The position numbers were made by a program, and so were the translations under genes. The notes under the pieces are model-generated. The model searched no databases. It worked only from the letters and a program-made list of their open reading frames with translations, and was not told the origin of the DNA. Of a stretch of 64,000 nucleotides of DNA, positions 2,892-46,896 are shown piece after piece. How positions within the stretch are numbered: position 1 is the first letter of the stretch; the number at the start of each line of letters is the position of its first letter. This DNA comes from a virus (taxonomy: Duplodnaviria; Heunggongvirae; Uroviricota; Caudoviricetes), in IMG/VR virus record IMGVR_UViG_3300015615_001076, positions 26,742 through 90,741 of that record; one strand, 5' to 3'.

Positions 2892-3232
2892 GATTCATCC
2901 CCCTGGTTGAGCGTCCCGACGACATCACAGTGCCGGCGGTCGAGTAAGAGTTGTCGATACCGTTCTTCCTCATCTAGCGTTCGAAGACCGTGCTGTTCCA
3001 GTTGCTCGATGCTTTGATGGACACCCCGACGCATGCCGATCGCCGCGTCTCCAATCTGTGTCCGTGCAGTCTGGGCCTGTTGCAATTGGCCTTCAACCAG
3101 CGCCAAGGCCCGTAGGACCGCCTTGCGGGATTGATTCTCCTGCGGCTGGTCCTCCGGCATCGTCTCGTTCTCAGCGGTTGAGACATCCACATGTTCATCG
3201 TTCGTCTGATCGGCTGTTGTCTGTCCCGTCAT
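2888..3232 (-). CDS. hypothetical acidic protein upstream of the giant helicase gene
   Basis: The stop overlaps the start of 2529..2891 and its start overlaps the end of 3229..9660 (operon-like coupling). Confidence 0.4.
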   Translation of the reverse strand: MTGQTTADQTNDEHVDVSTAENETMPEDQPQENQSRKAVLRALALVEGQLQQAQTARTQIGDAAIGMRRGVHQSIEQLEQHGLRTLDEEERYRQLLLDRRHCDVVGTLNQGDES

Positions 3233-6200: not shown

Positions 6201-9200
6201 CCTGCATGCCCTGAACCGGTCCGGCTTGCAGCGCATACTGCAAGGCGGCGACCGCCTCCATTTCACCCAGTGTGGACCCCAGCAACGACCGCGCTTCCTG
6301 CAACATCTCCACGCGCTTGGCGTTCAACTCACTGGCCACCGCCAGTTCTGTTGGTGAGTCAACCGTCCCGAGTTGAATCTCGCGGGCTTGCTCGCTGAGT
6401 TCCTGAGCCCGTGCAATGGCTTCTCGTGAGGCGTCGACATGATTGGATTGATGATAGGCCGCCAATCGTTCCGTAAACCCCTTCACATCGTCTGGCGCGA
6501 GCTTCGTATGCATCGCGTAGGCTACGGCTTGCGCAGCCCCAGCCGTCCCCAACACCGCGATAACATCATGGGGAATGACGTCTTGTCCGGTCAGCCCTAA
6601 CGACGCTCTGGTGAGCGCGTTCGTGGCACCGACCTGAATATGCCGGTCCAACGATTCCGCATGTTTGTCTGGGTCGTCGAGCGACAACGGCGTTTCGACC
6701 GTGCGGAGAAAGGACTTGCACAGATCTTGACGTTCGCGTTCTTTGGCGTCAGCTTCCAATTCAGCGATGAGCTCACTGGACAGAACCGGCTTCGCGTCGA
6801 TCACGTACGACTTCGCCACCGCCTCTTTCCCGGCCTTGATTGCCTTCGCTTGTTTGCTGGTTTGCGCCTGGACTTGTTGGACCTGTTTGGCCACGGTCAA
6901 GAGTGCCATCGCCTTTGACGGCACAACCGCCTTTGTATTCCGTTGGGTCGTCGCCACCTTGCCGGAGGCCTCGGCCTGTTGGACTTCCTCACGGATCTTA
7001 GCCATTGATTCTTGTAAGCGTTGGCCGGCCTCTGCCGAGCCTGGAGCGACGTCGGTCTTGCGTTGCGCCTTCAGATCCTCCACCTCTTGTTCTAATTCGT
7101 CCTCGGTAAGTCCTGCGGCATGGGCCTTTTCCGCATATCGCGTCCGGTATCCTTTCCCTGTTTCCGTCTGCGTCCCAGTCAGATCGGTCAATCCCAAGAC
7201 ATCCGGTTCGGTTCGATGAATCGAGAGTTCCCCAAGCTTGGCTTCCGCTCGCGCATCGAGGTCATCCATGATCCGTTCACGGGTCTGTTGCACGACGTCC
7301 ATGGCATCCCGCAGCAATTGCCGGTGATGCTTGGCAATCAATACACCCTTCGCGGCGTCACTCAGCCCTTGGAGCTGTTCTGGCTTGAGGTCAATATCTT
7401 CCCAGCCCATGGACTTCGCCACATGATCGATCAGCGTCCGTTCATGCTGCTGCCGCTGGGTTTTCAGTTCAGCTAAGGCCTTCTTTTTGGGCTCATAGGT
7501 GCCGGCTTCCTTGTCCTGCTTGATCCGCTCTTTGTCGGATGCTTTCTTGGCCTTGGCCCGATCCGTGGCCTGTTGTGTGTACTCTTCCTGGCTCTTCACG
7601 TTGGTCAGCTTGAGGTAATTGAGTTTGCCTCCGGCACCGCCGATGACATGATAGGTGCCCTTGTCGGTCTTCGACTCGCGGATGAGGATCGGCTGGCCTT
7701 CGCCATTCCCGCCATGTACCGTAATCCACCGACACGACTCGCCAGGGCCACAGGAGGATTTCTTGAAGGTCATGCGCAATGCGGGTCTGCCTGGACACCG
7801 GCCATCCGTCCGCTCTTCCTCACCACAGATCGCACAACGCGGGTGCCCGTTTGGATGCGTCCAGCGGGCAGCTTTGAAGGCATGCAGGTTGCGGCCTTCT
7901 TGCGTCGACCGTTCACGGATCGCCTTCGTCTCTTCATCATAGTCAGCCTGATCAGCAGCAGAGAGTGATTTGATCATGGCAGGCTTATCTTTAGTGGCTA
8001 GCACCTTGCGCTTGAACTCTTCCATTGGAAGAGTATGCATCGATCCAAAAAAGCGCGGGTCGGTGTAATTGTCGAGAAACGCTTGCTTCGCCTCTTCAGC
8101 CGAATCAAACCCCAGCATTGTCTTATCTTCGTCCCATCGCTTGAAGTCAGGGACAGCCATGGCATGGATCACATACGCATGCGTGGCGTCAGGATTGGGG
8201 CCAAGGAAGCAATCGACATGGTCTCCGTCTACACCTTGGGTACCCCTAATGTACCCATAGGCATGCTGCATCTTGATTTCTCCGGACTCGCCCTTGCGGT
8301 TCGTCCACCGGCGGATGCTGCCTTTCCGGTTTTCGATGGTGATCTCAAGCCCTTGGAAGGTAGTCTTGTAGTCGATCGGATGGCCGCCGCCATGGATGCC
8401 TTTGAAAACCATGGACATTGATGACTTCGAAAGGCGATCGTCTACCGGTTTTTTTGGGGGGCTTCTGTTGAACTCCTGAATAGCGCGTGTTAGACTCTCA
8501 ATGAGCCCGGTGGGCCGGTTGGAAGTCGGGGGCTTCGGCCCTGTCTGCGTCCGCCACGTAATGGACATCGGGCTCGACTCTTCAACGTTCACTGCCTCGA
8601 CCGTATAAATTCGTCTTCCCTGCTCCTGATTCACATACTCTTTAACGGTGAGTTTCACCATCCTCGCTTGTGAACCAACACGCATGGCGGTAAAGAGCCG
8701 ATAGACGGTGCCCATATTGGCATTTGCATCACGGTCAGGTCGCTGCTCGCCGACTCTGGCGTCAGCGAAGAGTCCATCAAGATTCGCGACCGCCAAGGCA
8801 TGCTCATGCGGTGTACTTGACTTGCTCACTGCACTTTCGCTCAGCATCTTGTCGAGCGACTGGCGCGACACCGTGGCGGTAATGCCATCCCCGCTTGTGA
8901 GTGTGCGACCTTGGAACGTACGCGCTATCGTTCTGGCTTCGCTAAACGTGTAGGTCGGGCGAAGTTGCTGTGACTCGATCACCCGTTGCCAATGATCTGG
9001 TGCGGTGAGGGGGGCTGGCGCATCATCCGTATCCGGACGTCTAGACGTCTTTCGCTCATGTTCTCTTACAAATGTGCCATCTTTTTTCGTATACGCTCGC
9101 ACTCTGGCCTTGAGAAAAGCGTGGTGTACCTGTTCGATCGCCTTCCGGAGTTCGTCAGACTCATCATCCCCGACCGTCGCCGCCCGCCAGATCGCGAGCT

Positions 9201-9660
9201 TCAATGCATCCTCTCCGCCAATCGGGAGGACGGATCCAGACGGGGAAAGCTTCGGTGTACCGTCCGGATGCCGATCCACTGTATGCAAGCCGATCAACGC
9301 TAACTTCTGGGCGAGAAACTCATGCGGGGTCTTATACAGTCCACCTGACTGATAGCCGGCTTCCTTCGCAAGATCCTGGACAATACCCTTCGTGTCGTGA
9401 TCTTCCCACAGTAACGGGTGTGGCCAATCGCGTTCCTTCTTCAGCCGTTGAGCGGTTTGGACCATGGCAGTCGAACGCTGATAGGCTTCTTCCGGAGTCG
9501 CCGTCGCAGGACCAACTTTGCGATGAGCGACATAGGGATGCACCACGGCGACGTGACCGTTCGAAGTCTGCCGAACACTGCCAGCCACCTGTACCGCTTG
9601 CTCCTGTTCGAAGCGTAGCGGCAGCGCCTTACGGATGGAACGCAGCACCCACGTCAGCAT
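3229..9660 (-). CDS. giant polyvalent protein (2143 aa) with SNF2/DEAD-like helicase domain
   Basis: Walker A GTGSGKT, DEAH box (LNVDEAHDA), helicase motif VI QRTGRIHRLGQ near the C-terminus. A zinc ribbon lies mid-protein (CAICGEE...CPGRP...CGPGESC). The KDGTFV motif sits at about residue 190. Size and architecture match injected polyvalent phage proteins. Confidence 0.85.
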   Translation of the reverse strand: MLTWVLRSIRKALPLRFEQEQAVQVAGSVRQTSNGHVAVVHPYVAHRKVGPATATPEEAYQRSTAMVQTAQRLKKERDWPHPLLWEDHDTKGIVQDLAKEAGYQSGGLYKTPHEFLAQKLALIGLHTVDRHPDGTPKLSPSGSVLPIGGEDALKLAIWRAATVGDDESDELRKAIEQVHHAFLKARVRAYTKKDGTFVREHERKTSRRPDTDDAPAPLTAPDHWQRVIESQQLRPTYTFSEARTIARTFQGRTLTSGDGITATVSRQSLDKMLSESAVSKSSTPHEHALAVANLDGLFADARVGEQRPDRDANANMGTVYRLFTAMRVGSQARMVKLTVKEYVNQEQGRRIYTVEAVNVEESSPMSITWRTQTGPKPPTSNRPTGLIESLTRAIQEFNRSPPKKPVDDRLSKSSMSMVFKGIHGGGHPIDYKTTFQGLEITIENRKGSIRRWTNRKGESGEIKMQHAYGYIRGTQGVDGDHVDCFLGPNPDATHAYVIHAMAVPDFKRWDEDKTMLGFDSAEEAKQAFLDNYTDPRFFGSMHTLPMEEFKRKVLATKDKPAMIKSLSAADQADYDEETKAIRERSTQEGRNLHAFKAARWTHPNGHPRCAICGEEERTDGRCPGRPALRMTFKKSSCGPGESCRWITVHGGNGEGQPILIRESKTDKGTYHVIGGAGGKLNYLKLTNVKSQEEYTQQATDRAKAKKASDKERIKQDKEAGTYEPKKKALAELKTQRQQHERTLIDHVAKSMGWEDIDLKPEQLQGLSDAAKGVLIAKHHRQLLRDAMDVVQQTRERIMDDLDARAEAKLGELSIHRTEPDVLGLTDLTGTQTETGKGYRTRYAEKAHAAGLTEDELEQEVEDLKAQRKTDVAPGSAEAGQRLQESMAKIREEVQQAEASGKVATTQRNTKAVVPSKAMALLTVAKQVQQVQAQTSKQAKAIKAGKEAVAKSYVIDAKPVLSSELIAELEADAKERERQDLCKSFLRTVETPLSLDDPDKHAESLDRHIQVGATNALTRASLGLTGQDVIPHDVIAVLGTAGAAQAVAYAMHTKLAPDDVKGFTERLAAYHQSNHVDASREAIARAQELSEQAREIQLGTVDSPTELAVASELNAKRVEMLQEARSLLGSTLGEMEAVAALQYALQAGPVQGMQVSLGSINNDTAIKQLRAIGLSKEDYAIESDGKTRYATINKSGLPKLTRRIDPDEAKRYEYTRAVLNGEHDEEGWLPAGFARRPQSSYTDPNEQAVSFAKPFSVSSHGLIEEDLKDYIGNHMADGVPVAQIYSSLLSHDLVNQVPDGQRQAYFEAIDRIAPLRDATGKPLRAEAHTDTFRRMAEEYVTKKYGPDAAPLHAQQIDPTAKPTYEALHRVMAEDPRRMVAFKKIGDLSPQDQTILRHHFEQTFAKPEQQGMVKEQLEALGPEPPKESDGLFGVQENPEWQAWHGQRQALLDQAQQAGLSWDKYVELHRGREGAYGAMQDHLKSHAVQAFADQYKKVTKQPLKLGRTVLRGNIAHLDAVDPQARETRLAEQRQAVDQLRNRTEGKYAAGSVKDKLDRARELAAIADQNQVSMFLAQQEDPKHPTLKADERWTLGDTVEQQLTAALPQVARNFSPNEPVTLIPDMRMDGKFANQQRLIKLIEHNKRMIGALGTGSGKTAISLGAFTHLHSQGKVRRGIFAVPSIVQRQFGAEAANVLEPGQYSWWANAGAPRDERIAAYKDPKHHFAVVTHQALRDDLVHLMAKQAGIPEEEMSQRFQGLTDKQRRVALQETMQKEGIHWDYLNVDEAHDALNRQGKTDSLFANVLDALGAETPYYVSASADPIKNDVSELHDALRKVDPERYADREEFMAKYGINTTAARDSLKRELMGRLFPGRVDPGVQAIKQDVPVALSEKQKADYEGVMTAYRKARQARRDGTVDLSALKQLSPASFTGTKDDEMGARLNEALGTLRDTALSRVVNLADPEHNAKMKETIARVNRYREEGKPGLIFAHHREAVAQLTKQLKAQGHRVVTITGSDSAKEKGRKQLMFRPPNGREAEADILVVSDAGATGMNAQRGRFVIHFDIPSTAKTWWQRTGRIHRLGQKHDVDVVTLQTDSLLDQKNKARLERKSGLREMLTSPYEGLEDSGIAASLLTEHTKEPVAA

Positions 9661-9680
9661 CGTCGCGCTCCTGGCACGTC

Positions 9681-9944
9681 TTAGGAGTCCCTATCAAGAT
9701 AGGAATCAAGATGCGGATCATCAAAGCGCTTAGCATCGTCCTCTGAGGCGTTTACGTCGTCATGCACGCAGGCTAATGGGTTTCCGGCTATCGCTTCCGC
9801 ACAAATCCCCTGGATCTTTGCAAGACGATCAGCAACATACCAATACTGAGGTGTCAGAAATCCTTCTTCGCGAATCGTCTCAATTTCGTATTCGAGCCGT
9901 TTCAGAACGCGGGCAATCTGTTGTTTAGTGAGTGTCATGTCCAT
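9681..9944 (-). CDS. small acidic hypothetical protein
   Basis: 87 aa with a strongly acidic C-terminus (DDVNASEDDAKRFDDPHLDSYLDRDS). Lies between the two giant genes. Confidence 0.4.
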   Translation of the reverse strand: MDMTLTKQQIARVLKRLEYEIETIREEGFLTPQYWYVADRLAKIQGICAEAIAGNPLACVHDDVNASEDDAKRFDDPHLDSYLDRDS

Positions 9945-10097
9945 ACTCGTCCTCCTCGCGATCCATGCAGCCTACGCAGAACAGAGGGATGATCTCGTCG
10001 TCACGATTGGTAGGGCCGAGCCCCATCGCCTTTTGTACCACTACCGCCGGACGCAGCCCGGCCTTTATTTCACGGCCACAGGCCTGACACTGCGTGC

Positions 10098-10454
10098 TCA
10101 TATCCCTCCAGCATCATCGTCATAAAGATGGTAGGGTTCACCCGAATCATGGTAATACGCATCCGGTGAATTCGGCTCGAACGTCGCTCGGTATTGCTGT
10201 TCGTGAATGGCTTCGGCCAAGAGCGCCGCATCGGTCTCAGCCGGTAAGTGAGCCTCCGCTTCCAAATCGGTATAGGCACCCAACAGATAGAGCTGATCTG
10301 GCCCATAGCCGTGCTCTTTTAAGAGCCGTTTCACCGCCCACCAATACACACCGAAATCACGGTAGCGGCGCGGTTCCTCCTGTAGCAGCTGCACGATAGC
10401 TTCGAGCACCGTGTCGACGTCGGGGACTGGTTCAATCGGGTCCTCGGATTCCAT
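10098..10454 (-). CDS. small highly acidic hypothetical protein (possible DNA mimic / chaperone)
   Basis: 118 aa with roughly 27 D/E against 8 K/R. The start abuts the stop of the 1840-aa gene. Confidence 0.45.
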   Translation of the reverse strand: MESEDPIEPVPDVDTVLEAIVQLLQEEPRRYRDFGVYWWAVKRLLKEHGYGPDQLYLLGAYTDLEAEAHLPAETDAALLAEAIHEQQYRATFEPNSPDAYYHDSGEPYHLYDDDAGGI

Positions 10455-10455
10455 G

Positions 10456-13400
10456 TCATCCCGTCTTTCCGAACGTCATCGGTAGCCGACTCTTGATGAC
10501 CGTCTCAAGTGCGGTCATCGGATCCTTTTTCATCGTGTGGTAGTCCGTCATCTTGTCAAGCAGCGTATGTTTCTCCTCCCACCCGATGACGTCTCGGAGT
10601 GCGTCTTGATAATAGGTGCTGGTATACCGTTTTTTGGCCTGGCGCGATGAATAGTTCCTGCCTGCTCCAAACGAGGAATTTTTCTGCTTCTCCTCCCACG
10701 CCAGCTTGACCAACGGTTCGAGATGTCGCTGGATCGGAAGGAGATAGGTCGCCTTCTCAGCGGCGGCATCTCCAGGAAAGACCTTCGCTGGCCTCCCGGC
10801 TTCGTTCAGCGCCCACAAGGCTTCCATCGTCTGCTCCGGGTCCTGATAATCCGGCTTCTCTTTCATCCGTGCACGCAACGCGTGCTGAATCTGATCCGCA
10901 TGCTGTGCAATCAACGAGGCCGGGAACATCCGGAGATGAGACGGCTGGCGGATCTTCGGAATCATTGCGGTCAGCTCATCGGCGTGGCTCACATCCATCG
11001 CGGACGAGAGTCCGCTTGCCAGGTCGTCGATGCGCACAGCGGTCGTACGGTCGTTTCTGTCATACGGTGGAGGCAGTACCCCGATTTCACGAAGCGTGAC
11101 CGAGGCTTTCGGCACATCCACGCTCACCACCCGCCACTGGCTCTCGCCCTTGGTCTTGGTAAAGAGCGGGCGATCATCCCCACCCGACATGGCAAGCGTG
11201 GCCCCCTCATACAACGGCACCCCTTGCGGCGACAGCAGCATCGGCTTGTCGATCGAGAGCATGGCCTTCTGTTCAAAATGCTCATCCTGATGGAGGTCGC
11301 GGGTCATGCGCTCCATGCGCTGTTTGAGTAAGTGCGCGGTCTTGGTCTCTTTGTTCAATAACGCCCCATAGGTCTGGCGGAGCTTCTGCAAGTGACCGAA
11401 CTGGCTGGCGGCTGCAGCCTTCTTAACCGCCCGATACTTCTCTAACTGAGCCTCTTTGTTCTTCGCCAGTTCCGCACGCGCCTGATCCGGATCATCAGCC
11501 ATCATCACGAGAAAGTCATCATGGCTCAGGCTCCCCTCAGCCGCCAAGTTCTCAATCCGATCCGCCCCATGCCAGAGCTGATCCATCCATTCTTTTTTCC
11601 CGGCGATGGTCTGATACCGGTACCCATCGAACGATTTCTTGGCGAGATAGGTATGGACGCGTACCGCCTCCAGCTTGTTCCCTTGGCGAATCCCCCGTCC
11701 GTTCCGCTGTTGCATGCTGGACGGCTCCCAGGGAAGGTCCATATGATGGATGTCGCTCGTCAGTTTTTGCAGGTTGACGCCTTCGCCCATGGTGGCCGTA
11801 TTCCCGATCACGACCCGCAATTTGCCTTGCACATAGTCGTCGGCCACACTATGGCGCTTCGCGCTGTCTTGCGCCACCTGTGCATTGATGATGCCGATTT
11901 GCTCCGCTGGCACACCGGCTTTGATAAGCTTGTCCTTGATCTTTTGATGCACCGCGATCTGATCGGCAAAGATGATCTGCCCACCGTCTTGGAGCATATC
12001 CTTGACCGTCTTGGACACGGCGTCATACTTGGGGCTGTCGAAATCCGTGACGCCTTTGACCCACTCCCCATCGAGTAAGCTCAAGTCCATGGAGGCCTTA
12101 CCCATCTTATCCATGAGGGTAAAGACATGGGCCTCACCCGTCTCTTTCGCCTTGGCGTCGAGGGCCTTGTTGCGAATCGTCGCGTAGACCTGGTGTTGAG
12201 CCTTCGTCATGTCGATGTAATGTTCCTGCACATCCTTCGTGGGGATTTTGAGTCCAACGTCTTCGGCTGTTTTCCGATAGATGTAGCGGCCCATGATGGA
12301 CCGCAGTTCGTTCATGTTCTTGAAGCCCGTGACCACCGACGACATCACAATCTCGCCGTTCGTATCGAGTACCGGCTTGATGGCCGTCTCACAGTAGCGG
12401 TCAATGAAGTCTTCGGCATGTCGGATGCCGCGCTGTGAGAACGCTTCCGGCGCGATATGCGCCAGCATGGAATAGACTTCCAAGGGGGAATTTTTGGTAG
12501 GGGTCGCTGTTAATGCAAACACCCCTCGACCGTTATTGTTCTCACGCACGAAGCGGCATTTATGCTCCATATCCATCGCCCGCTTGGCAAAACCAGATCC
12601 GCCGAGAAACTTGGGTTTTCCGCCGAAGCGACTGCGGGCCTCGTACAGGTTTTTATAGCTATGAAATTCATCTCCTATGATGCAATCCACCCCCAGATCA
12701 TTGAAGTAGATCGCATTGGTCCTCGACCGGAAGTCTTTGTTGGCCATCGCTTGCTGGTACTGTTCGCGGATCTCCCGCACTTCCCGGCGCGTGCCTTCTT
12801 CGAGTTGATCGGCCCGTTGCACCCAGAAATCCGACTCGATGTATTCCCCGCGTTTGATCGGGTCGAGCGTGATTTCGTTGAAGGCCGGTTGCGTCACCAA
12901 CACATAATCAAAGGACTCTTGCGTGAGCTGATGCCACTTCTTGTGGCGTTCCTTCGGATCGTCTGCCGTCGCTTTCAACTTCCCATCTTTCCCTCGGCTG
13001 TGTGTTTCGCCAATGACCAATACCTTCGACCCCGGCATAAATGCCTCGATTTCCGAGACCCAGTTGGCGGTAAGCGATTTCGGCACCACGATAATGGGAC
13101 GCTGAATCTTGCCGTCCTGCTTCAGCGACTTGACGAGGGCAATGGCCATCGGCGTCTTCCCGACCCCAACGTCATAACTGATAATCCCCTTCCCCTCTTC
13201 CTTCGCCCAGCGCAGCGCCGGATGCTGATAGGCATTGAGCGCCCGATCGGGATTCCAGCCCGGTATCTTCACCGGCTGATCGCCATACCGCTTGGGTTTG
13301 TAGCTGTTATAGAGTCGGTTGTAGGTGTCCTCGATCGACGACCGATGGGGAGAGGTCGCCAGCCAATTCTTAAAGTCTTCCTCACGCTCAGGGATACGCT

Positions 13401-15978
13401 TCCATTCATGCTCGGTCATGCGCAGGCGGTTCAGGTAGTCGGTGTAGACGCTATCGAGGTACGCGTTCCCGCCTATGTTCTTGATGGTATAGACGCCATC
13501 GTGAAACGTGACGGCATAGTTTGGCGGGCGTGTGTCGCTCCCATGCTGATGCGCGATCGCGTTGAAATAGTCGGCTAAGACGGTCGTCGGAATCCATCCG
13601 GCGCGTAACGAGACTTCGAACTCCTCCAAGGTTTTTGGCTGAATGGCCTCGTCCAACCACCCGACTTGCTCTTGGAGCTTGTGCTTGAGCGGCCCTTCCG
13701 GAGTGCGCTCCAATGCCGCCGCAACGGCATCGCGCTTGGGGTACAACTCGCCCGACGTGAAATCTTCCCGCAAGACCCATTCTGTGCCGTCCACGTTGAC
13801 CGCATAGCGGTCCGACCCCATCAGGCGTTGGAGGATTTCGTTCCGGACCTCGTCGGTCGTCGCGCCATCCCAGCTCACTGCAAGCTGGTCCACCGTGACG
13901 AATCGCCCGTCCCCGTCCAGCAAGCGCCGCACCACCGCGTCAAAATCTTTGGTATCCAACCCTTGGTGCGTGCTTGAAAAGAGTGTGCCGTCAACCAGAT
14001 CGGACGGCTTCCCGTTGGCGTTGAGCGCCACAATCAGCGGATAGAATCGTGGATCCCGCTCCGCCAGCGCGACCAAGGTCTTATCTTGCAGCGGGAGACC
14101 GAATTCCTTGGCAAACTCCAGCACCTCGTCTTTGATGAGCCGGTCGGACGCCTGTCTGCCTTGCGCCGCTGCATCGGCCAGGTATTTCAGTCGTTGCCCC
14201 AAATCCAGCGCACGACCTTCCTTGCTGGTCGGAGCGTACTGCAGGTCGTCGAGGTCCTCAGCACGGTGCCATCGACGGGGATTCCCTTGGAGCACATATA
14301 AGGTCCCGTTCACCAGCTTGGTGGTGCCGTCTGGTAAGTCCGGATAGGGATTCTTCCTCGACGCGCCATTCAGGCGCTTCACGAAATCAGGCTGCTCGTC
14401 GAAGTGTGCGGCAATCTCCTCAAAGGTCTTGGGACCATGCGTCGATTGATCGAGCGGCGACAGCGCAATCGCCGCCGGCACCCCATCCATTTCACCCGAC
14501 ACATCCAGACCGCCGCGCCAATTGGCTTGGGCGGTGCCGTGGAGATAGCCCCGTCCACTAACCTCCAGAATCTGCCCGTCCAGCCACGGACGGTCCCAAA
14601 CGCCCAACGCTCGCAAATCCACTGGCTCATCGATCACACCGAGTGCTCCGGCGACTGCCTGTGGCCGTTTTCGCAGCACCAAGACATCGGTGACCACGCC
14701 GGTTCCTGAATGCTTGAAGGCCGTATTGGGCATCCGATGCACACCCAGGACTTCGGCTTTTTTCATCACCTGTTCGCGAAACGATCGGCTGGATGGATTG
14801 GTCGAAAGGCCATGGGGCACGACGAGACAGACCACGCCTCCATCTTTGGTCTTATCCAAGGCGGTATCAACAAAATACTCTTCGGCGGTTCCGAGATCGG
14901 GCTTGTCCTGGGCGGCAATCGCGCCCCGCACGCCAAAGGGCACATTGCCGATCACGGCGTCGTATTTGATCGGATCAGCCGTAACGAAATGCTCCAACGC
15001 CAGGTTCACGACTGCATCATCCGGATGCAGAACCGCATTGATCGCTGAGGAAGTCCGGTCCCATTCCACGGCGGTCATTTTAATCCCGGCTGGCTTGGTT
15101 TCCTGGAAAACCCCACTCCCTGCACACGGCTCCAGCACATGCCCCGTAGAGAGTCCGAGCGTGGACAAGATCTTCCACATCGCTGCCGCGACGGCAGGCG
15201 GCGTGTAGTATTCGTTCAGACTGTCCCCGATGCCGCCGTTCCCTGAATAGGCGGCGAGGGTCTTCCGCCAATCCTTCGCAGTTCGATGCAGTGTGCGGAT
15301 TTGCTCTTGTGCGGTGAGCGGTCGGTTGTTCTCTCCGGTCACCCGATCCTTGACCTGATCAATGAGTGCGACGGCCTGCGCATTGGCTTTCTTCCGTGTG
15401 CTCGCGGACCAACCGGATTGTGCCCCAAACGCAGGCAGGTGTGTTTCAATCAAGGCCCAGTCGTCAGCGTAGCTCAAGCCAACGTCAGATTTGTTTGTAG
15501 TGGGTTCCTTCTCATCCAGGTTGGCGGTTGCCCGCACAGAATCTGTGAGATCGAGCAATCCTACAGGTATCTGCATCACATTGCCGTTTGCCAATTTTAC
15601 GGGATATGACGACGGACCGATCTTGGGAGTTTCGATGGGGCCATCGATCACACCGTTCATGAAGGGCTTGCCAATCTTTGCAATGACGGAAGCTCCAACC
15701 GGAAAAACAGAACCCTGTTTATCTGTGCCGTCAGGCACCTCTCTCGTACTTGATTCAGTGACGCGAATCTCTTCCCGTTTTTGTGCCACATCTTGTCGCA
15801 CGGTCGCTCGTTCTGCAGGCGGCGTGTCGAGCATGGTGAACAGCCCGAGCTGTGAGGCGGGTTCGCGCTTGTCCAGATGCTCTGGCACAAAAGTGCCCTG
15901 TTTGGTCGTGTAGGCACTCACCCGTCGGGCTTTAAAGAACAGTCGCAGTCGATCAAGCATGGAGAGATTCCGCCTCAT
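10456..15978 (-). CDS. polyvalent protein (1840 aa): N6-adenine-type DNA methyltransferase fused to SNF2-family helicase
   Basis: N-terminal KDGTFV motif. MTase motif I LEPCAGSGVF and motif IV GNVPFG. SNF2 motifs DEFH, LTATPTKNSPLEVYSMLAHI and QQRNGRGIRQGN. Architecture resembles DarB-like antirestriction proteins. Confidence 0.85.
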   Translation of the reverse strand: MRRNLSMLDRLRLFFKARRVSAYTTKQGTFVPEHLDKREPASQLGLFTMLDTPPAERATVRQDVAQKREEIRVTESSTREVPDGTDKQGSVFPVGASVIAKIGKPFMNGVIDGPIETPKIGPSSYPVKLANGNVMQIPVGLLDLTDSVRATANLDEKEPTTNKSDVGLSYADDWALIETHLPAFGAQSGWSASTRKKANAQAVALIDQVKDRVTGENNRPLTAQEQIRTLHRTAKDWRKTLAAYSGNGGIGDSLNEYYTPPAVAAAMWKILSTLGLSTGHVLEPCAGSGVFQETKPAGIKMTAVEWDRTSSAINAVLHPDDAVVNLALEHFVTADPIKYDAVIGNVPFGVRGAIAAQDKPDLGTAEEYFVDTALDKTKDGGVVCLVVPHGLSTNPSSRSFREQVMKKAEVLGVHRMPNTAFKHSGTGVVTDVLVLRKRPQAVAGALGVIDEPVDLRALGVWDRPWLDGQILEVSGRGYLHGTAQANWRGGLDVSGEMDGVPAAIALSPLDQSTHGPKTFEEIAAHFDEQPDFVKRLNGASRKNPYPDLPDGTTKLVNGTLYVLQGNPRRWHRAEDLDDLQYAPTSKEGRALDLGQRLKYLADAAAQGRQASDRLIKDEVLEFAKEFGLPLQDKTLVALAERDPRFYPLIVALNANGKPSDLVDGTLFSSTHQGLDTKDFDAVVRRLLDGDGRFVTVDQLAVSWDGATTDEVRNEILQRLMGSDRYAVNVDGTEWVLREDFTSGELYPKRDAVAAALERTPEGPLKHKLQEQVGWLDEAIQPKTLEEFEVSLRAGWIPTTVLADYFNAIAHQHGSDTRPPNYAVTFHDGVYTIKNIGGNAYLDSVYTDYLNRLRMTEHEWKRIPEREEDFKNWLATSPHRSSIEDTYNRLYNSYKPKRYGDQPVKIPGWNPDRALNAYQHPALRWAKEEGKGIISYDVGVGKTPMAIALVKSLKQDGKIQRPIIVVPKSLTANWVSEIEAFMPGSKVLVIGETHSRGKDGKLKATADDPKERHKKWHQLTQESFDYVLVTQPAFNEITLDPIKRGEYIESDFWVQRADQLEEGTRREVREIREQYQQAMANKDFRSRTNAIYFNDLGVDCIIGDEFHSYKNLYEARSRFGGKPKFLGGSGFAKRAMDMEHKCRFVRENNNGRGVFALTATPTKNSPLEVYSMLAHIAPEAFSQRGIRHAEDFIDRYCETAIKPVLDTNGEIVMSSVVTGFKNMNELRSIMGRYIYRKTAEDVGLKIPTKDVQEHYIDMTKAQHQVYATIRNKALDAKAKETGEAHVFTLMDKMGKASMDLSLLDGEWVKGVTDFDSPKYDAVSKTVKDMLQDGGQIIFADQIAVHQKIKDKLIKAGVPAEQIGIINAQVAQDSAKRHSVADDYVQGKLRVVIGNTATMGEGVNLQKLTSDIHHMDLPWEPSSMQQRNGRGIRQGNKLEAVRVHTYLAKKSFDGYRYQTIAGKKEWMDQLWHGADRIENLAAEGSLSHDDFLVMMADDPDQARAELAKNKEAQLEKYRAVKKAAAASQFGHLQKLRQTYGALLNKETKTAHLLKQRMERMTRDLHQDEHFEQKAMLSIDKPMLLSPQGVPLYEGATLAMSGGDDRPLFTKTKGESQWRVVSVDVPKASVTLREIGVLPPPYDRNDRTTAVRIDDLASGLSSAMDVSHADELTAMIPKIRQPSHLRMFPASLIAQHADQIQHALRARMKEKPDYQDPEQTMEALWALNEAGRPAKVFPGDAAAEKATYLLPIQRHLEPLVKLAWEEKQKNSSFGAGRNYSSRQAKKRYTSTYYQDALRDVIGWEEKHTLLDKMTDYHTMKKDPMTALETVIKSRLPMTFGKTG

Positions 15979-17314
15979 GGATCGAAGCGGTTAAGCGATC
16001 GAGGTAGGCCTGATGCGTATCGCGTTTGGCGAGCAGCACGCCGCGTTCAGCGGTGCCAAGGTCCGGAGACGTCAGGTCCCAGTCCAGCGTCTCAATGGAT
16101 TTGAGCAGCGCGGTGTGAACCTGATAGGCACGGTGAAGCGGTGTTACGCCCTGGGACGGGCGAGATGGGAGTCCAAGGCTTGGAGGATCTTGTCGTTCCG
16201 GGTTTCCTCCATCTGATCGAACGCGTGCGCGGTCTGTTCCGAGAGGGGCACGGTTCCCGTCGAGGGCTTTGCCAAAGCTGGGCGGTTCGCTGCGCTCCTG
16301 AAGAGCAGCTTGCTCATTTTTTTCAACATCGGTGCTGTACCTCCGCCAGTGCGTGACCCGTGGATCCTGCTTGACCTGATTGTAGGTCTCTTCCGGTCTT
16401 CCGTCAACGGTCTTGGCGATGTAGCTGGGAGGGACAAACCGACCAGACCGGCGAAACCGCTGGACCGCCCGCGCACAGGATTGTTCAATCGGGAGATGGG
16501 CATACAGAATCGAGATTTCATAGCCGAGCATATGAAACCGCTCGACCATCCTTTTGACCTTGCCATCATTCGCCCCGGTGATATCGAGTAAGACATGGTG
16601 GTTGGCCTGCAACGCCTTGGGCAGAAGTTGGCCTTCGGCGATATCGCTGGATTCTTCATGGACCAAGCCGGCATTGCGGCCGTTGTATTCCGGCAGCCGC
16701 TCTTTCACATCATCGGCATTGATCACCGTGAACTCCACGCCCAGTTCTTTGGCCGCCGGCTGAAGTGCCGAGGTCTTCCCGGACGCTGGGGCACCTAACA
16801 GAATGACCGCGTGGGGACGTTGCCCTTCAGAGACAGCCGCTCGCGGATTGAACATGGCCCCCAGAATACTGTCATGGAGCTGCGCCCGTTCGGGATCATA
16901 GGTGCCGTCCGATTGGCGATAGAGATGATGCGTCGATGTCCCGGCTGACACTTCACGCATCGCTTGCTGGATATCTGGTTCCTGCTCGATCGTATGCAGC
17001 CAGGCTTCTAACATCCCTGGCTTCGCTGGCTCGACCTCGGCAACCGGGGGCCGTTCGGTTTGCAGGGGGTCGTCGTGATGAGCAGATTGTTCTTGGTCTA
17101 CCGTCTTCTTCGGGTCTTTCGCCTGTGCGAACTCTTGCTGCGCCTTGGTGCGTGAGTCCTCATGCTCCTGGACCATCGCCGTCTTACCGGACTTGGACCG
17201 GCGCTGATAGGTCTTCACATGCGATTTCACGAAGGTCCCGTCCTTACGTCGATAGCCCGACACATAGTCCTTCCCAAACACCATGCGGAGCATCGACCGG
17301 GCCATCTTCATCAT
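15953..17314 (-). CDS. Zeta-toxin-like P-loop kinase domain protein with polyvalent-type N-terminal motif
   Basis: N-terminal 'GYRRKDGTFVKSHV' motif. Walker A LLGAPASGKTS, then 'DITGAN' and 'LYAHLPIEQSCARAVQRF' segments typical of the Zeta-toxin / AAA_33 kinase fold. Confidence 0.6.
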   Translation of the reverse strand: MMKMARSMLRMVFGKDYVSGYRRKDGTFVKSHVKTYQRRSKSGKTAMVQEHEDSRTKAQQEFAQAKDPKKTVDQEQSAHHDDPLQTERPPVAEVEPAKPGMLEAWLHTIEQEPDIQQAMREVSAGTSTHHLYRQSDGTYDPERAQLHDSILGAMFNPRAAVSEGQRPHAVILLGAPASGKTSALQPAAKELGVEFTVINADDVKERLPEYNGRNAGLVHEESSDIAEGQLLPKALQANHHVLLDITGANDGKVKRMVERFHMLGYEISILYAHLPIEQSCARAVQRFRRSGRFVPPSYIAKTVDGRPEETYNQVKQDPRVTHWRRYSTDVEKNEQAALQERSEPPSFGKALDGNRAPLGTDRARVRSDGGNPERQDPPSLGLPSRPSQGVTPLHRAYQVHTALLKSIETLDWDLTSPDLGTAERGVLLAKRDTHQAYLDRLTASIHEAESLHA

Positions 17315-19497: not shown

Positions 19498-19770
19498 TCA
19501 TGGCTCACGTGGCGCCGGCTCTTTGAGCTTCGCCTTCAACGTCTCGTTCTCAGCCGTCACCAGTTTCAACTTCTGTTGCAGAACGCTATTGAACGCATGC
19601 GCCTGGGCCAGTTGCTGCTCCACCGTTGCGCGATGCTCGTAGAGCACTTGGTTATGCAGGCTCTTCACTAAGAGCTGCTCCGGACAACTGGGCGCTGGCT
19701 CAGCGGCCAGCGCAGGACTCGCGATTAGCAGCAACGCAACGAACAGACCAAGCATGGTGCACCCTTTCAT
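19498..19770 (-). CDS. small secreted coiled-coil protein
   Basis: Signal peptide MLGLFVALLLIASPALAAEP, then a heptad coiled coil. Confidence 0.45.
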   Translation of the reverse strand: MKGCTMLGLFVALLLIASPALAAEPAPSCPEQLLVKSLHNQVLYEHRATVEQQLAQAHAFNSVLQQKLKLVTAENETLKAKLKEPAPREP

Positions 19771-19771
19771 G

Positions 19772-22507
19772 TTAAAACCCCGCTGACGAGCGAGGCGATA
19801 CCGTCAGTATTGTCGGCGTCACACCCGGCACCAAGATGATCGTCCCATCGTCTTTGGTGACCTGACACTGAATCGTCTTGTCGACTGGAGCCTCATTCAC
19901 ACCGATCATTTCCAACTCCGTTACGGTGCCAGCCGGCAGGGCCGGCACCGTAAACACAGAGGTGTCATCGCGCATGATCGTCCCGGCGACGAACGGCGCG
20001 ACCGTTGAGAAGCGTTTGGTCGTGGAGGAGAGCGAACCGGGCATATCCGCTTCCAGGCCGACCCCAAAGAATCGCAGACCGTGCGCACCAGCCGTATTGA
20101 GCACTTTGGTATAGCCCCCGCCGTTTTGCTGGCAGAACCACGCAATCCCGAAGGGACTGGTGGTCGCGACAGACGCCGTCGCTTCGAGGCGCAAGCGAAA
20201 GATGCCATCGGGAATGATCTCGGTTGGGGTGTTCAGGAGCCCTTGCGCCGCCACGCCGGATTCCGTGCCAAACGCCTTGAAGACTTGATAGTTGGTCATG
20301 GTCAGCAGAGCCGTGGGGGGAGGCGCTTCGACAGCAGGCAACAAGGAGACCGCCAGGTGCGCCCAATACTTCGCCGCCCCTAAGACGCCGTCCATGACGC
20401 CGCCATCTGATCCGGACTGCGTACTGGAGGCCAAGAGCAGCGTTTGATTAGCATGGCTGATAGTAGGAAGCGCGGTCTGATTGACCCCTGCTGTATAGGA
20501 GGTCTCATTGGAGGACGCGGCACAATCGATGACGAGTTCCTGCGTATTCGTGGGAGCGGTGACGTTGGGCGTGGCACTCATCGCCGTGTTGCCTACCGCT
20601 GTGTTGAGTCCTGAAGTCTCGCGAAAGTCCGTCGCTCGCCCCAACAGTCCTGTGACGGCCCCGGTGGTCGTCACGTTCAGGGTCCGGACCCCCGATGACG
20701 GAGAGGCCACCTTCCACAATTCCACGGCACGATGGGGAGGCGAGGTCGTTTGACGCTTGACCAGCGAGAGGCTTTGCGCGTCGAGCGTCACGGCACTGAC
20801 CGATCCGACATTGCCCGCCGTATCGCGGAGAGCGATACATACGAGCAGTACATCCGGCACGGTCGTAATGGTATGGGGCCACAAGAGGCTGGCCGCCCCC
20901 GTCGTCCCAGATTGAGACGTGGTTCCGATGACGACGGTACTGGGGGTTCCCCCACCCCCACCCCCGCCACCATACCCAGCCGGAAGCGAGCAGCCCCCCG
21001 CGTTGACGTTCAAGCGCGTATGGATGGAATCGATGGAGGTTCCTGGTTGCCGGTTGATGCCATCCGGATCGGCTGCCCCATGCGGAAACTCTCCGGTGAT
21101 GGGATCCCACAGAGGAGTAGTGGTGAGTGTGCCATTCACATAGCGGTAGAGGATCGTCGCGCCGATATCGCTCCCGCCAGTTCCAGCTCCCTTTGCTGCC
21201 GCGCCAGCCGGTACCCAGAGCTTACAGGTCCCGAGCCCTGGATTGGTGGTGACGGCGTTCGTCCAGTTCGAGGGGAGCGCTGGAGAAAATGCGACTTCGT
21301 TGTTGTAGGAAATTACCCTGTCCCCGCTCCACGTATTATGGCCGGTAATCGAAAAGCCGGACGGGGTGCCAGAGGTACTGGAGAGCCCTTGCACAATAAT
21401 GTTCGTCATGGTGACAGAATTCTGCGCAGGAGTGCCGCCATACGAGGAATCGATGGCCTGAATTCCATGGCCGTTCACGCCCGTACCCCCACCAAGAATC
21501 GTGATATGGTCGAGCACGGCGCCGACGCAATCCTGGCACTTAATCCCGGAAGACGGTGAGGACCAATCCACAATGGCCACATCTTTGATCGTGATGTTCT
21601 GCGGCGAGTGATTCAAGTCGGCGACCTTTCGCCCGTTTGGGAACACGCCGTTTAAATGGTTGCACTTGTAGCAAATCGAGCCCAACACCTTCGACCCGCT
21701 CATCAGGACGCTATTGTCGTAGGTCGCGTTCATCTCATTGAGGAACAGACCGTGAGTGGTACCGTCCGCGATGGAATTTTCAAGGATACAGTTTTTGCAG
21801 GGGTACATGGAAAAGACGGCATCGGCGGCGCCAAGTTGTCCGGCAACCCCGCCAGCGATACGCCCTCCACGAGGGTTGCAGTATTGCCGCCTCACGACGA
21901 CTCGTTCTGATTGCCCTGCAGATACACAATGACGATGAAAGACGTACGATTCATTATCCTCGAAGAGGACATCTTGCGAGCGATAGGCGACGAACGTATG
22001 GTTATTGCCGTAGCGGTTCGGATTGACTGAGAGGTTATTCCGTGCCGTGATGTGATGGCTCGTCTCTATGTAAAATACCTCACCGAGCTCGTTGGTCGAA
22101 GTCGGTAGATAATTGTTATCCGTCGATCTGACATAGAGGCCGTCGAGCACAATATAGGCGCTATTCTGCACCCGCAGCGCATAGCCTGTGCCGTTGTCGA
22201 CGATCTTGGCTTGGCGGTCATGCTCGGCCCGTAAGGTAAACTCGTTCCCCGCCGTACACACCAACCCGCTGATCAACGGCTTGCCGGTACTCGTGCCATC
22301 GCCATAGACCCCGCTCAGCAACACTAGCTCGTCACTGCATCCGGATTTCCCTGCGCTTGAGCCAATGGCAAAGGAAAATGTGAGCCATGGGGTGGATGCA
22401 GACGTGCCGTTGTTACTATTGGAGCCGGTCGGTGAGAGGTAATAGGTCACTGCCGAGGCGGCAGGCGGCAGAAACAGGGAGAGTGCCAGCACCAGAATCA
22501 GCCTCAT
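19772..22507 (-). CDS. secreted right-handed parallel beta-helix protein (pectate-lyase fold; depolymerase/tailspike-like)
   Basis: Signal peptide MRLILVLALSLFLPPAASA. The N-terminus 'VTYYLSPTGSNSNNGTSASTPW' is typical of pectin-lyase-fold proteins. Multiple N-x-[ST] / Gly-rich beta-helix rungs, a GYGGGGGGGG linker and a C-terminal beta-sandwich. Confidence 0.65.
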   Translation of the reverse strand: MRLILVLALSLFLPPAASAVTYYLSPTGSNSNNGTSASTPWLTFSFAIGSSAGKSGCSDELVLLSGVYGDGTSTGKPLISGLVCTAGNEFTLRAEHDRQAKIVDNGTGYALRVQNSAYIVLDGLYVRSTDNNYLPTSTNELGEVFYIETSHHITARNNLSVNPNRYGNNHTFVAYRSQDVLFEDNESYVFHRHCVSAGQSERVVVRRQYCNPRGGRIAGGVAGQLGAADAVFSMYPCKNCILENSIADGTTHGLFLNEMNATYDNSVLMSGSKVLGSICYKCNHLNGVFPNGRKVADLNHSPQNITIKDVAIVDWSSPSSGIKCQDCVGAVLDHITILGGGTGVNGHGIQAIDSSYGGTPAQNSVTMTNIIVQGLSSTSGTPSGFSITGHNTWSGDRVISYNNEVAFSPALPSNWTNAVTTNPGLGTCKLWVPAGAAAKGAGTGGSDIGATILYRYVNGTLTTTPLWDPITGEFPHGAADPDGINRQPGTSIDSIHTRLNVNAGGCSLPAGYGGGGGGGGTPSTVVIGTTSQSGTTGAASLLWPHTITTVPDVLLVCIALRDTAGNVGSVSAVTLDAQSLSLVKRQTTSPPHRAVELWKVASPSSGVRTLNVTTTGAVTGLLGRATDFRETSGLNTAVGNTAMSATPNVTAPTNTQELVIDCAASSNETSYTAGVNQTALPTISHANQTLLLASSTQSGSDGGVMDGVLGAAKYWAHLAVSLLPAVEAPPPTALLTMTNYQVFKAFGTESGVAAQGLLNTPTEIIPDGIFRLRLEATASVATTSPFGIAWFCQQNGGGYTKVLNTAGAHGLRFFGVGLEADMPGSLSSTTKRFSTVAPFVAGTIMRDDTSVFTVPALPAGTVTELEMIGVNEAPVDKTIQCQVTKDDGTIILVPGVTPTILTVSPRSSAGF

Positions 22508-23667
22508 GGAAACACCCAGGGAGCCCTGCGCCTTTGCGCACTCGGAAAGGCCGTGATATCCATCGCATACCAATTATTGAGGGCCGCGACATTATCAGCG
22601 GTGCCTGATCCGCTGGTGCGCACACCGCCCAAGCCAAACCCTGAGATCGTCGCGTCCGTGGTGGGCGCAATCACGGTGACGCCATTGACGTAACAGGCGG
22701 CTTGATCGTTGAGGACGCGCAGTTCAAGGATGTCACCCGCTGTCGGAACGACGAGGGACGAGGCCGCGAGCACGGTTCTGGCCCCGCTGAGGAGGTAGCC
22801 CAGCTCATATTCATCGGTGCCGGCGAGGTCCCGCGCCATGCAGTAGTAATAGGTGCCCGTCGCGTTATTTTCCTTTCGAGCTATCACCCCGGCTTCATTC
22901 ACCGTCGCCGAGTTGCGTGTGAGAATGGCCAACGTCGCGCCAACGGCCATGTCATCGGTTGCCAGGCCCGACGTCATTCGGGCCGCTTGCGTGGCCACAC
23001 TGTTGGTCGTAGTCGCCTGATTCGAGACGATACCGATGACGGTTCCCTGAAATCGGCTCCAGGTGAGCTGGCACGTGAGACTGGTGCTGCTATCAGCACA
23101 ATCCCAATTCTCGTTATAGGACGCGGCCCAGGCGTTTGAGACCTCGATGAGTTTCGAGAGGAGCGTGAACGGCCAGTGAAGCAGCGCGTCGATCGTGCGG
23201 AGATCAGGCACGGAGAACATCGAGCGAGCCACCGGCGCGTCCCAGATCTGTTTTCCACCGATGGTGATACGGTTGGTGCCCTGCGCGGTCAGCCGGAGTT
23301 TCAGACTGTTGGTTTGTGCGACGGCTCCGACGAGATCCGAGAGCGTGTCCATCGTCACCGCCCGGCCCAGCACAGGCTGAAGCGCGGTTTTTAACCCTGC
23401 ACTCAACCGCGTCGAATCATCATCGGGCATCGCAATGACGCCCATCTGAGCCGGCACAGCCGGTCCACGGCAGAGCATGTATCCGGCCACCAGAGCGGGG
23501 TTGACTCGAAGATCAGTACACACCGTTGGATTGGCACTCTTGTGTGCACGATAGGGATCGGTCTCCGTCCCCGTCCCAATCACCGGCGAGAGATACGTGG
23601 CCGTTTGCGCGTGCGCGAGATCCAGGAGACTGGTGACGGCCAGCAGCATGGCGAGCAGAAGCCGCAT
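22504..23667 (-). CDS. secreted hypothetical protein (N-terminus resembles beta-helix cap: QTATYLSPVIGTGTETDPY)
   Basis: Signal peptide MRLLLAMLLAVTSLLDLAHA. ATGA-type overlap with neighbours. Confidence 0.5.
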   Translation of the reverse strand: MRLLLAMLLAVTSLLDLAHAQTATYLSPVIGTGTETDPYRAHKSANPTVCTDLRVNPALVAGYMLCRGPAVPAQMGVIAMPDDDSTRLSAGLKTALQPVLGRAVTMDTLSDLVGAVAQTNSLKLRLTAQGTNRITIGGKQIWDAPVARSMFSVPDLRTIDALLHWPFTLLSKLIEVSNAWAASYNENWDCADSSTSLTCQLTWSRFQGTVIGIVSNQATTTNSVATQAARMTSGLATDDMAVGATLAILTRNSATVNEAGVIARKENNATGTYYYCMARDLAGTDEYELGYLLSGARTVLAASSLVVPTAGDILELRVLNDQAACYVNGVTVIAPTTDATISGFGLGGVRTSGSGTADNVAALNNWYAMDITAFPSAQRRRAPWVFP

Positions 23668-23668
23668 G

Positions 23669-26052: not shown

Positions 26053-26054
26053 AC

Positions 26055-42384: not shown

Positions 42385-42403
42385 CAGCTATTTCCCTCCC
42401 CCG

Positions 42404-46878: not shown

Positions 46879-46896
46879 ATCGTGTGCTTCCCCTCG

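Follow-up and report, generated by a model that had tools for sequence, protein, structure and literature searches.

The 64,000-nucleotide (nt) stretch analysed here (the window; positions 26,742 to 90,741 of IMG/VR record IMGVR_UViG_3300015615_001076, Caudoviricetes) belongs to a prophage in which integrase, replication, SbcCD-like, terminase, portal and head-maturation protease genes are all encoded. A block of 14,086 bp on its minus strand (3229-17314) harbours the genes for a Zeta-toxin-like kinase, a methyltransferase (MTase)-SNF2 fusion resembling DarB of phage P1, a small Ulx-like protein and a giant polyvalent helicase. These four genes all lie inside the head-morphogenesis block, downstream of the portal gene and upstream of the prohead protease gene. 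Their joints are tight: kinase and DarB-like genes overlap by 8 nt, the DarB-like and Ulx-like genes are separated by a 1-nt spacer, and the helicase gene shares a 4-nt ATGA overlap with the next open reading frame (ORF). The genes and domains of the block are listed below, with amino acid (aa) positions counted within each protein.

15953-17314 (-): Zeta-toxin-like P-loop kinase, 453 aa; Pfam Zeta_toxin at aa 162-316, E 1.5e-20
10456-15978 (-): DarB-like protein, maximal ORF of 1840 aa
14629-15396 (-): LPD36-like region (GNGGIG) and N6-adenine MTase domain of the DarB-like protein (TP motif, motif I, motif IV NVPF); Pfam and P1 DarB alignment
11629-13239 (-): SWI2/SNF2-type ATPase of the DarB-like protein, both lobes, motifs I-VI; Pfam ResIII, SNF2-rel_dom and Helicase_C
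10098-10454 (-): Ulx-like protein, 118 aa, starting 1 nt past the DarB-like stop codon
3229-9660 (-): polyvalent giant, 2143 aa, with a ~630-aa N-terminal extension and a ~1,513-aa head-module helicase typical of its clade
8605-8940 (-): LPD3 domain (large polyvalent-protein-associated domain 3) of the giant, aa 241-352; Pfam PF18798, E 2.7e-13
8005-8367 (-): InPase domain (polyvalent-type inorganic pyrophosphatase-like OB fold) of the giant, aa 432-552; Pfam PF18823, E 4e-36
7795-7857 (-): Cys3/His knuckle HPNGHPRCAICGEEERTDGRC of the giant, 21 residues, aa 602-622; matches no Pfam family
3232-7773 (-): helicase core of the giant, with a small N-terminal beta domain (RWITVH...GGAGGKLNYLKL), ~950 mostly helical aa and a superfamily 2 (SF2) ATPase
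3385-4782 (-): SF2 ATPase of the giant, with GTGSGKT (1649), DEAH (1783) and QRTGRIHRLGQ

The DarB-like gene probably starts at Met7 (position 15960), a start preferred because the resulting 1834-aa product is identical to the database protein P0001 and agrees with the N-termini of close relatives; it is this start that overlaps the kinase stop codon. From N- to C-terminus, the protein consists of a short tag shared with other products of the block, a variable linker, an LPD36-like helix region, an N6-adenine MTase, a conserved middle region, an SNF2 ATPase and a variable C-terminus. A first-pass annotation, made from the sequence without database searches, had read N6-MTase motifs I and IV and SNF2 helicase motifs in the 1840-aa ORF, and both Pfam [N6_Mtase at aa 254-450 (E 5.5e-9), ResIII at aa 914-1161, SNF2-rel_dom (E 4e-26) and Helicase_C at aa 1324-1433] and direct reading of the motifs bore this out. 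The motifs were located as follows.

aa 256-261: TP motif EYYTPP (YTP at aa 258-260)
aa 281-291: MTase motif I, VLEPCAGSGVF
aa 344-349: MTase motif IV, GNVPFG, identical in P1 DarB
aa 936-943: Walker A, DVGVGKTP
aa 1103-1106: DEFH box
aa 1157-1165: TATPTKNSP
aa 1423-1433: QQRNGRGIRQG

Motif IV and the helicase motifs are thus present and, in an alignment of 22 homologs (~40% identity), the catalytic residues of both MTase and ATPase were invariant, including Y258, T259, E283, P284, G289, N345 and P347 of the MTase. The TP motif and the NPP(Y/F)-type motif IV point to a predicted EcoKI/TaqI-like N6-adenine MTase of the gamma class, and the intact motifs of the C-terminal part to a predicted SWI2/SNF2-type ATPase fused to it. 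Sequence searches of the PDB matched the latter to the ATPase domains of Rad26, CHD1L and ISWI, and found no structure of DarB.

The protein is collinear with P1 DarB over aa 195-1522, in four ordered segments (aa 195-498, 758-981, 866-1281 and 1315-1522; E 7e-50 to 3e-13). Identity reached 37% (E 7e-50) in the segment facing P1 DarB aa 47-336, which comprises the MTase and the N-terminal helical region; helicase lobes 1 and 2 aligned with E values of 8e-44 and 6e-27, respectively, the middle region was also aligned, and both termini are not homologous to P1 DarB. In the LPD36-like region, where LPD36 would show a GxGU motif N-terminal to the MTase, AAYSGNGGIG aligns with AGYTGEGGIG of P1, residues G246, G248 and G249 are invariant and the AlphaFold2 model shows helices, yet no LPD36 match was obtained in Pfam even at E<=5. 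At the same threshold, Pfam returned nothing meaningful for the DarB C-terminus, the N-terminal regions, the Ulx-like protein or a 363-aa head-module protein described below, the single weak match being DUF1408 (E 0.08) at the kinase N-terminus. The best tblastn match among isolate phages was Bordetella phage vB_BbrM_PHB04 (Phabquatrovirus; hereafter PHB04), the closest cultured relative (44% identity over 79% of the query), and other matches were the Thermus Lalka phages, annotated as 'DarB-like', and DarB of P1, P7, D6 and SJ46 at ~30%. Nucleotide searches of phage and plasmid collections with the DarB-like gene gave no match, and a reference-genome collection scanned with DarB-like peptide patterns gave no relative. 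Exact copies of both giant proteins were found on a metagenomic contig of 719,510 bp.

The ORF directly downstream of the DarB-like gene matches phrog_1629, 'Ulx-like anti-restriction' (E 1.4e-17), and P1 Ulx by BLASTP (E 2e-9), so that the darB-ulx order of P1 is kept; such a pair had already been noted in Thermus Lalka phages (PMC11437467). Judged by its sequence, the 1840-aa protein is a member of the DarB family that has retained its Ulx partner.

Some peculiarities of the family deserve separate mention. The DarB-like C-terminal end (window 10459-10497) reads IKSRLPMTFGKTG; in the homologs P0003, P0007, P0008 and P0011, some 'KS-hydrophobic-F-GK' junctions continue into an extra C-terminal module beginning KSFxGHxGRPGxxGGS, and many cargo ORFs of relatives close with a similar 'MIKA/KS + hydrophobic run' right before the stop codon. 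These ends may be fusion or recombination junctions. Moreover, Hint, intein-splicing or LAGLIDADG domains occur in the DarB-family homologs P0011, P0012, P0048, P0055, P0080 and P0105, and the same domain types in the helicase-family homologs P0157, P0199, P0221 and P0226. In P0011 the insertion lies directly after the DExH box (…DEGHC|FPKGT…VHN|CYKNL…).

The second giant, of 2143 aa, had been described as an SNF2/DEAH helicase, and this was confirmed by its Pfam matches (DEAD/ResIII/SNF2 at aa 1630-1869, Helicase_C at aa 1978-2082) together with its GTGSGKT and DEAH motifs; phrog_10089, 'DarB-like antirestriction', matches both window giants. Besides the domains expected, Pfam revealed LPD3 and InPase, which the first-pass annotation had not named and which have been described only from polyvalent, virion-associated proteins (PMC5512222). 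With LPD3, InPase and an SF2 helicase in one polypeptide and portal, terminase and protease genes as neighbours, the giant has the make-up of a multi-domain polyvalent protein. The 'zinc ribbon' also attributed to it is plausible but unverified: there is a small Cys3/His knuckle that is kept in two relatives (locus L003 and, placed elsewhere in the protein, locus L054), but no family model matches it.

Residues 630-2143 of the giant align with PHB04 gp025, annotated only as a superfamily II helicase, at 42% identity over 1,528 aligned columns. In all, 228 homologs of this helicase were detected, most of them 1,510-1,530 aa long; in the subclade of the window protein they bear N-terminal extensions with InPase, and in several cases ART-PolyVal, LPD3 being recorded only in the window protein. 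In PHB04, the InPase is encoded on its own by gp028, which immediately precedes the DarB-like gene, and the helicase, of 1,518 aa, lacks the N-terminal extension, from which we conclude that the window giant is a fusion of adjacent cargo genes. The InPase also aligns with the last 117 residues of a phage portal protein of solved structure (PDB 9b41 chain L, 'gp19 Portal', E 1e-17). In another phage, then, this domain is a physical component of the portal, which would be consistent with a location inside the capsid. In the AlphaFold2 model of helicase aa 630-1640, a small beta domain at the N-terminus precedes long helices [predicted local distance difference test (pLDDT) 73, predicted template modelling score (pTM) 0.43], and a Foldseek search of this model against the PDB returned no match at E<=0.001. 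The ~950 helical aa carry no enzyme signature.

The presence of a Zeta-like kinase, another element of the initial description, was substantiated by a Zeta_toxin score of 74 bits (cutoff 22.3) and a Walker A motif GAPASGKTS. A homolog, 49% identical, occupies the equivalent position in a Nitrospirota metagenome-assembled genome (MAG), and a weak match to the AvrRxo1/XopAJ family was also seen. No epsilon/PezA antitoxin family was matched by Pfam in the weakly Gp77-like ORF or the DarB-like gene that adjoin the kinase; the kinase should thus be regarded as a Zeta-like kinase domain and not as part of a toxin-antitoxin module.

The gene order around the cassette was then compared across relatives. 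The flanking genes of the window are the following.

31831-35052 (-): terminase, large subunit, a 1073-aa ORF
29710-31554 (-): portal protein, upstream limit of the head module; phrog_12, E 3e-29; 41% identity to the PHB04 portal
27543-28634 (-): conserved head-module protein, 363 aa; PHB04 gp030 is 31% identical
9681-9944 (-): ORF of 87 aa that separates the Ulx-like gene from that of the giant helicase; the Nitrospirota relative has a homolog in the matching position
2888-3232 (-): ORF of 114 aa, its ATG overlapping the stop codon of the helicase gene (ATGA); L003 and L054 have homologs in the same place, after the helicase
9-977 (-): prohead (head maturation) protease, downstream limit of the cassette; phrog_1028, E 1.3e-23; 43% identity to PHB04 gp022

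An alignment-based scan of IMG/VR yielded 68 loci which, with those of PHB04 and the Nitrospirota MAG, made up 70 loci with a DarB homolog. A Ulx homolog was found immediately downstream of DarB in 64 of the 70, the giant helicase in 57, the InPase domain in 54 and the Zeta-like kinase in 35, and homologs of the 363-aa protein lay upstream of DarB in 55. The portal upstream (31/70) and the protease downstream (37/70) were counted within the limits set by the length of flank retrieved. All counted genes were on the same strand as DarB. Many of the contigs measured 80-98 kb, near the 94 kb of PHB04. The resemblance to DarB and to polyvalent proteins that had been proposed at the outset is upheld by the collinearity with P1 DarB, the adjacent Ulx homolog, the LPD3 and InPase domains and the position between portal and protease. 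The block had also been called an unusually large counter-defence payload of ~14 kb; the size stands, but the recurrence of the cassette across the 70 loci makes it the norm of the clade and not unusual.

The window departs from this norm in having the kinase directly before the DarB-like gene, InPase and LPD3 fused to the helicase, and ~10 kb of extra ORFs. The closest context was that of the Nitrospirota MAG, with a kinase, a DarB-like protein (56%), a Ulx-like protein (60%), small ORFs and an ART-PolyVal-InPase-helicase (61%). PHB04 shares the order portal...InPase, DarB-like, Ulx-like, giant helicase...protease, and its DarB (gp027), Ulx (gp026) and helicase (gp025) are 44%, 43% and 42% identical to those of the window. 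It differs from the window in that the 44 kb examined showed no Zeta-like kinase and in lacking the ~10 kb of additional ORFs that the window has between its 363-aa protein and its kinase; its cassette proteins are known from annotation alone. In the Morganella phage Mecenats66, the slot holds a minor head protein, the helicase, a small ORF, the protease and the major capsid protein, with no DarB or Ulx in the block, and the layout of Thermus phage phiMa is similar. ORF60 of Mecenats66 (~363 aa by coordinates, annotated 'putative minor head protein') would, by position and size, be the counterpart of the 363-aa protein.

Three large proteins of the window, the kinase, the DarB-like protein and the giant, share a peptide of the form FLKA..V..YT.KDGTFV..H..KR, which in a broader pattern opens with a hydrophobic 'LFLK[AST]' and continues as V.GY.RKDGT.V..H.DKR.

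17198-17284 (-): copy in the kinase, aa 11-39, MVFGKDYVSGYRRKDGTFVKSHVKTYQRR
15862-15945 (-): copy in the DarB-like protein, aa 12-39, RLFFKARRVSAYTTKQGTFVPEHLDKRE
9040-9123 (-): internal copy in the giant, aa 180-207, HAFLKARVRAYTKKDGTFVREHERKTSR
9514-9660 (-): degenerate copy in the giant, aa 1-49

The peptide was present at the N-terminus of all 22 aligned DarB-family proteins, with Gly28 invariant and His34 kept in at least 90%. When 2.3 million residues of six-frame translation were searched with a profile made from 19 copies, 80 matches were obtained at E ~0.01 or better, 3 of them from the window and 77 from related loci; each lay on the coding strand, and the opposite strand gave none. 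They fell into 66 distinct contexts, 51 at ORF N-termini and 15 internal, and a Met was found 3-25 residues upstream of the peptide in 55 of the 66, where positions drawn at random from these ORFs gave 26.8 ± 3.9. Tagged modules in relatives include InPase, ART-PolyVal, HD, PAPS-reductase-like and Zeta-like domains. AlphaFold2 modelled the peptide as short paired, hairpin-like beta-strands (block-mean pLDDT 87-92). No Pfam model matches it, and we found no description of it in the literature searched; in PMC5512222, term searches turned up no mention of N-terminal signals, signal peptides or leaders. A recent DNA duplication as the source of the three window copies was rejected, as their DNA agrees only where the peptide demands it and differs at synonymous positions. 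Likewise, the prohead protease was considered and dismissed as a further carrier of the tag: its '...GSMLKATP' is conserved protease-family sequence, and the hydrophobic-K pattern is too short on its own.

From its distribution, the peptide may be regarded as a candidate capsid-targeting or ejection tag, which would also mark module boundaries in fused cargo. Whether it serves as a portable capsid-targeting and/or ejection signal throughout this large, mostly uncultured phage clade is a more tentative proposal, to which we give somewhat less than an even chance. If true, it would mark the whole injected proteome (DarB, helicase, InPase, ART, HD, PAPS-reductase-like and Zeta-like modules), and the giants would have arisen by the joining of tagged cargo genes that were formerly separate, their products perhaps being cleaved again at the junctions.

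Two other N-termini are noted here as observations in their own right. The DarB-like protein of Thermus phage Lalka27a (L076, 2074-2373) begins MDLVRLYQELLAKAEQPALF and keeps a 'K-A-E-Q-..-L-F' element common in the family, without the hairpin part. The residues of P1 DarB reported to be required for capsid targeting, aa 6-10 MGVFR (L002, 3863-3990), show a loosely similar hydrophobic-F-basic pattern, a lead only.

Elsewhere in the window, a tyrosine integrase gene (62765-64000) runs past the right edge, and SbcC/SbcD-like nuclease subunits are encoded at 54099-57580. A DUF5131 protein adjoins a DNA methyltransferase (phrog_363) within 41374-43324, the methyltransferase gene itself occupying 42404-43324, and a weakly HerA-like ATPase adjoins an SPFH/Band 7 protein at 45235-47907. 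In the terminase ORF, the ATPase match (aa 88-222) and the nuclease-side matches (aa 613-981) are separated by ~350 aa with a weak Intein_splicing match (E 8e-4, below cutoff), so that this spacer may be an intein. Within the head module, six ORFs have signal-peptide-like N-termini (19498-19770, 19772-22573, 22504-23715, 23669-24949, 24928-26088 and 29270-29698, all on the minus strand). Only that at 29270-29698, an SNase homolog, has a Pfam match, and two others have weak PHROG 'tail' matches; odd at such a position, these ORFs may encode tail or surface proteins of an unusual kind, or may have come in as a moron.

Taken together, we consider it likely that the block 3229-17314 is an internal-protein (cargo) cassette of a temperate tailed phage, whose products are injected with the DNA to blunt host restriction. 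In such a scheme, the cassette genes would be transcribed, from their place between portal and prohead protease, along with the other genes of the head, and yield the Zeta-like kinase, the DarB-like adenine-MTase/SNF2 translocase, its small partner Ulx and the polyvalent LPD3-InPase-helicase giant. These proteins would enter the prohead, perhaps guided by the shared N-terminal peptide, and be ejected with the DNA into the next host. There, the DarB-like enzyme would load on the entering DNA and, by ATP-driven translocation, methylate or shield it in cis against type I-like restriction, like P1 DarB, and the accessory enzymes may act early in infection on host nucleotides or proteins. Precedents exist for several of these steps. 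P1 DarB is a head protein present in ~40-45 copies, the first 30 residues of which suffice for capsid targeting of a reporter; P1 Ulx, another head protein, is listed as helping DarB to localize, and Ulx, DarB and DdrB are linked with protection from EcoB/EcoK restriction of type I (PMC9024508, PMC12810830). The DarB-like giant of phage JC1 was detected in purified virions by mass spectrometry, and Bcep22-like phages carry DarB-like proteins of ~4,500 aa (PMC9144972). Translocation-coupled methylation or protection of injected DNA has been proposed for MTase-SNF2 polyvalent proteins (PMC5512222). A counter-defence role is conceivable for the giant helicase and the Zeta-like kinase as well.

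Several points weigh against this interpretation. DNA methylation by P1 DarB is itself a sequence-based prediction (PMC5512222), and the shared hairpin-type peptide is absent from P1 DarB. For DarA, Hdf, DdrA and DdrB, which P1 requires for stepwise incorporation, no homologs were found in the six-frame translated window or in the PHB04 and Nitrospirota loci (phmmer, E<=1) and, with four of the six P1 Dar components missing, incorporation cannot proceed as in P1. Literature searches found no proteomics for PHB04 or its relatives. The head module is split between the 363-aa protein and the kinase by ~10 kb of unrelated ORFs, several with signal-peptide-like N-termini. Finally, the giant helicase is present in the DarB-less relatives Mecenats66 and Thermus phiMa (in the latter, ~12 kb beside the helicase were examined), and may therefore serve assembly or ejection as a core head-module gene, and not be a counter-defence add-on.

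This last point leads to an alternative in which the helicase, and possibly the 363-aa protein too, is a core structural or mechanical part of head assembly or DNA ejection, for instance an internal-body protein or a motor that helps to draw DNA into the cell, so that only DarB-Ulx, InPase and Zeta are accessory cargo. Full-length homologs in the same slot of Mecenats66 without DarB or Ulx, and the similar case of phiMa, speak for it, as do the very uniform length of the family (~1,510-1,530 aa) and ~950 helical aa with neither enzyme signature nor PDB fold match; on the other hand, the window helicase is fused to the typical effector domains LPD3 and InPase, and relatives to ART-PolyVal. The intact ATPase motifs suit either role and no test run contradicts this alternative, which we hold to be unlikely but the most serious of those considered.

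A more improbable explanation is that the MTase-helicase fusion is not packaged and methylates progeny DNA processively in the producing cell before encapsidation, as a self-protection methylase. Its adenine MTase and translocase motifs are indeed intact, and the separate DNA methyltransferase at 42404-43324 indicates that the phage invests in DNA modification. However, the gene lies inside the head block, paired with the homolog of a P1 head protein that is listed as aiding DarB localization, the P1 and JC1 homologs are virion proteins (PMC9024508, PMC9144972), and the conserved N-terminal tag is common to unrelated enzymes of the block. There is very little, finally, to recommend the idea that the prophage guards its lysogen with the SNF2/MTase genes as a defence system, akin to DISARM, BREX, Zorya, Dpd or a type ISP restriction-modification enzyme. 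The element is an integrase-carrying prophage, and partial PADLOC/NCBIfam matches to DrmD, ZorD, DpdE, BrxH and MAD2 were obtained, but these cover the generic ATPase or MTase domain only, and the best NCBIfam scores were 34-62 bits against cutoffs of 500-1,500 (DrmD, 56 versus 610). No nuclease/PLD domain and no partners (DrmA/B/C, BrxA-L) were seen in the genes scanned, and the genes sit in a late head operon whose arrangement recurs in ~70 phage contigs; a defence system was thus rejected on curated family cutoffs.

DarB-type proteins rank with the largest of the known anti-restriction factors. In the window and its relatives, the DarB-Ulx pair travels in a conserved head-module cassette together with swappable enzymes and another, uncharacterised helicase of ~1,500 aa, and the occurrence of this cassette in dozens of environmental phages and in the cultured PHB04 makes it testable in the laboratory. 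If the peptide is a true packaging signal, it would provide a simple predictor of injected proteins in these phages and a handle to load foreign proteins into capsids, as has been done with T4 and P1 signals.

Compared with known systems, the closest parallel is the DarB-Ulx pair of P1, with which the window shares the domain order (LPD36-like region, gamma-class N6-adenine MTase with GNVPFG, middle region, SNF2 ATPase), collinear over ~1,300 aa, and the location of ulx right after darB, both beside the portal gene. Identity is only 28-37%, however, and the N-terminal 190 aa and C-terminal 320 aa of the window protein are unrelated to P1 DarB. The window adds a giant helicase and a Zeta-like kinase, neither of which is part of the six-protein Dar system of P1 (PMC12810830), and lacks four of the P1 Dar proteins, so that the locus is not a copy of that system. 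With the polyvalent proteins of Iyer et al. (2017; PMC5512222) it has in common the MTase-SNF2 'dyad', here with an LPD36-like region, the LPD3 and InPase domains, the neighbourhood of packaging genes and the shuffling of domains among relatives (LPD3 versus ART-PolyVal N-termini), although the metallopeptidase and processing peptidase domains of those proteins were not detected here by Pfam. In the Bcep22-like podophages, represented by JC1 gp69 (4,515 aa; a virion protein by mass spectrometry, PMC9144972), which shares the phrog_10089 family, the functions reside in one ~4,500-aa polypeptide, encoded last in the morphogenesis module, and no Ulx has been reported, whereas in the window they are encoded by separate genes. 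The likeness to Zeta/PezT and AvrRxo1-type kinases lies in the Zeta_toxin P-loop domain; unlike Zeta/PezT, the window kinase sits in a head module and bears the shared cargo tag. As for the T4 internal proteins and the 30-aa targeting sequence of P1 DarB, the common feature is a short N-terminal peptide on otherwise unrelated head cargo (PMC9024508); no sequence similarity to those signals is established, and the window peptide, with its putative targeting role, differs in being found internally as well, at module junctions. The window thus extends the DarB/Ulx-type and polyvalent virion cargo already known and introduces no new principle, but the cassette that contains the giant helicase is largely unstudied, and the shared peptide is the most interesting by-product of its analysis.

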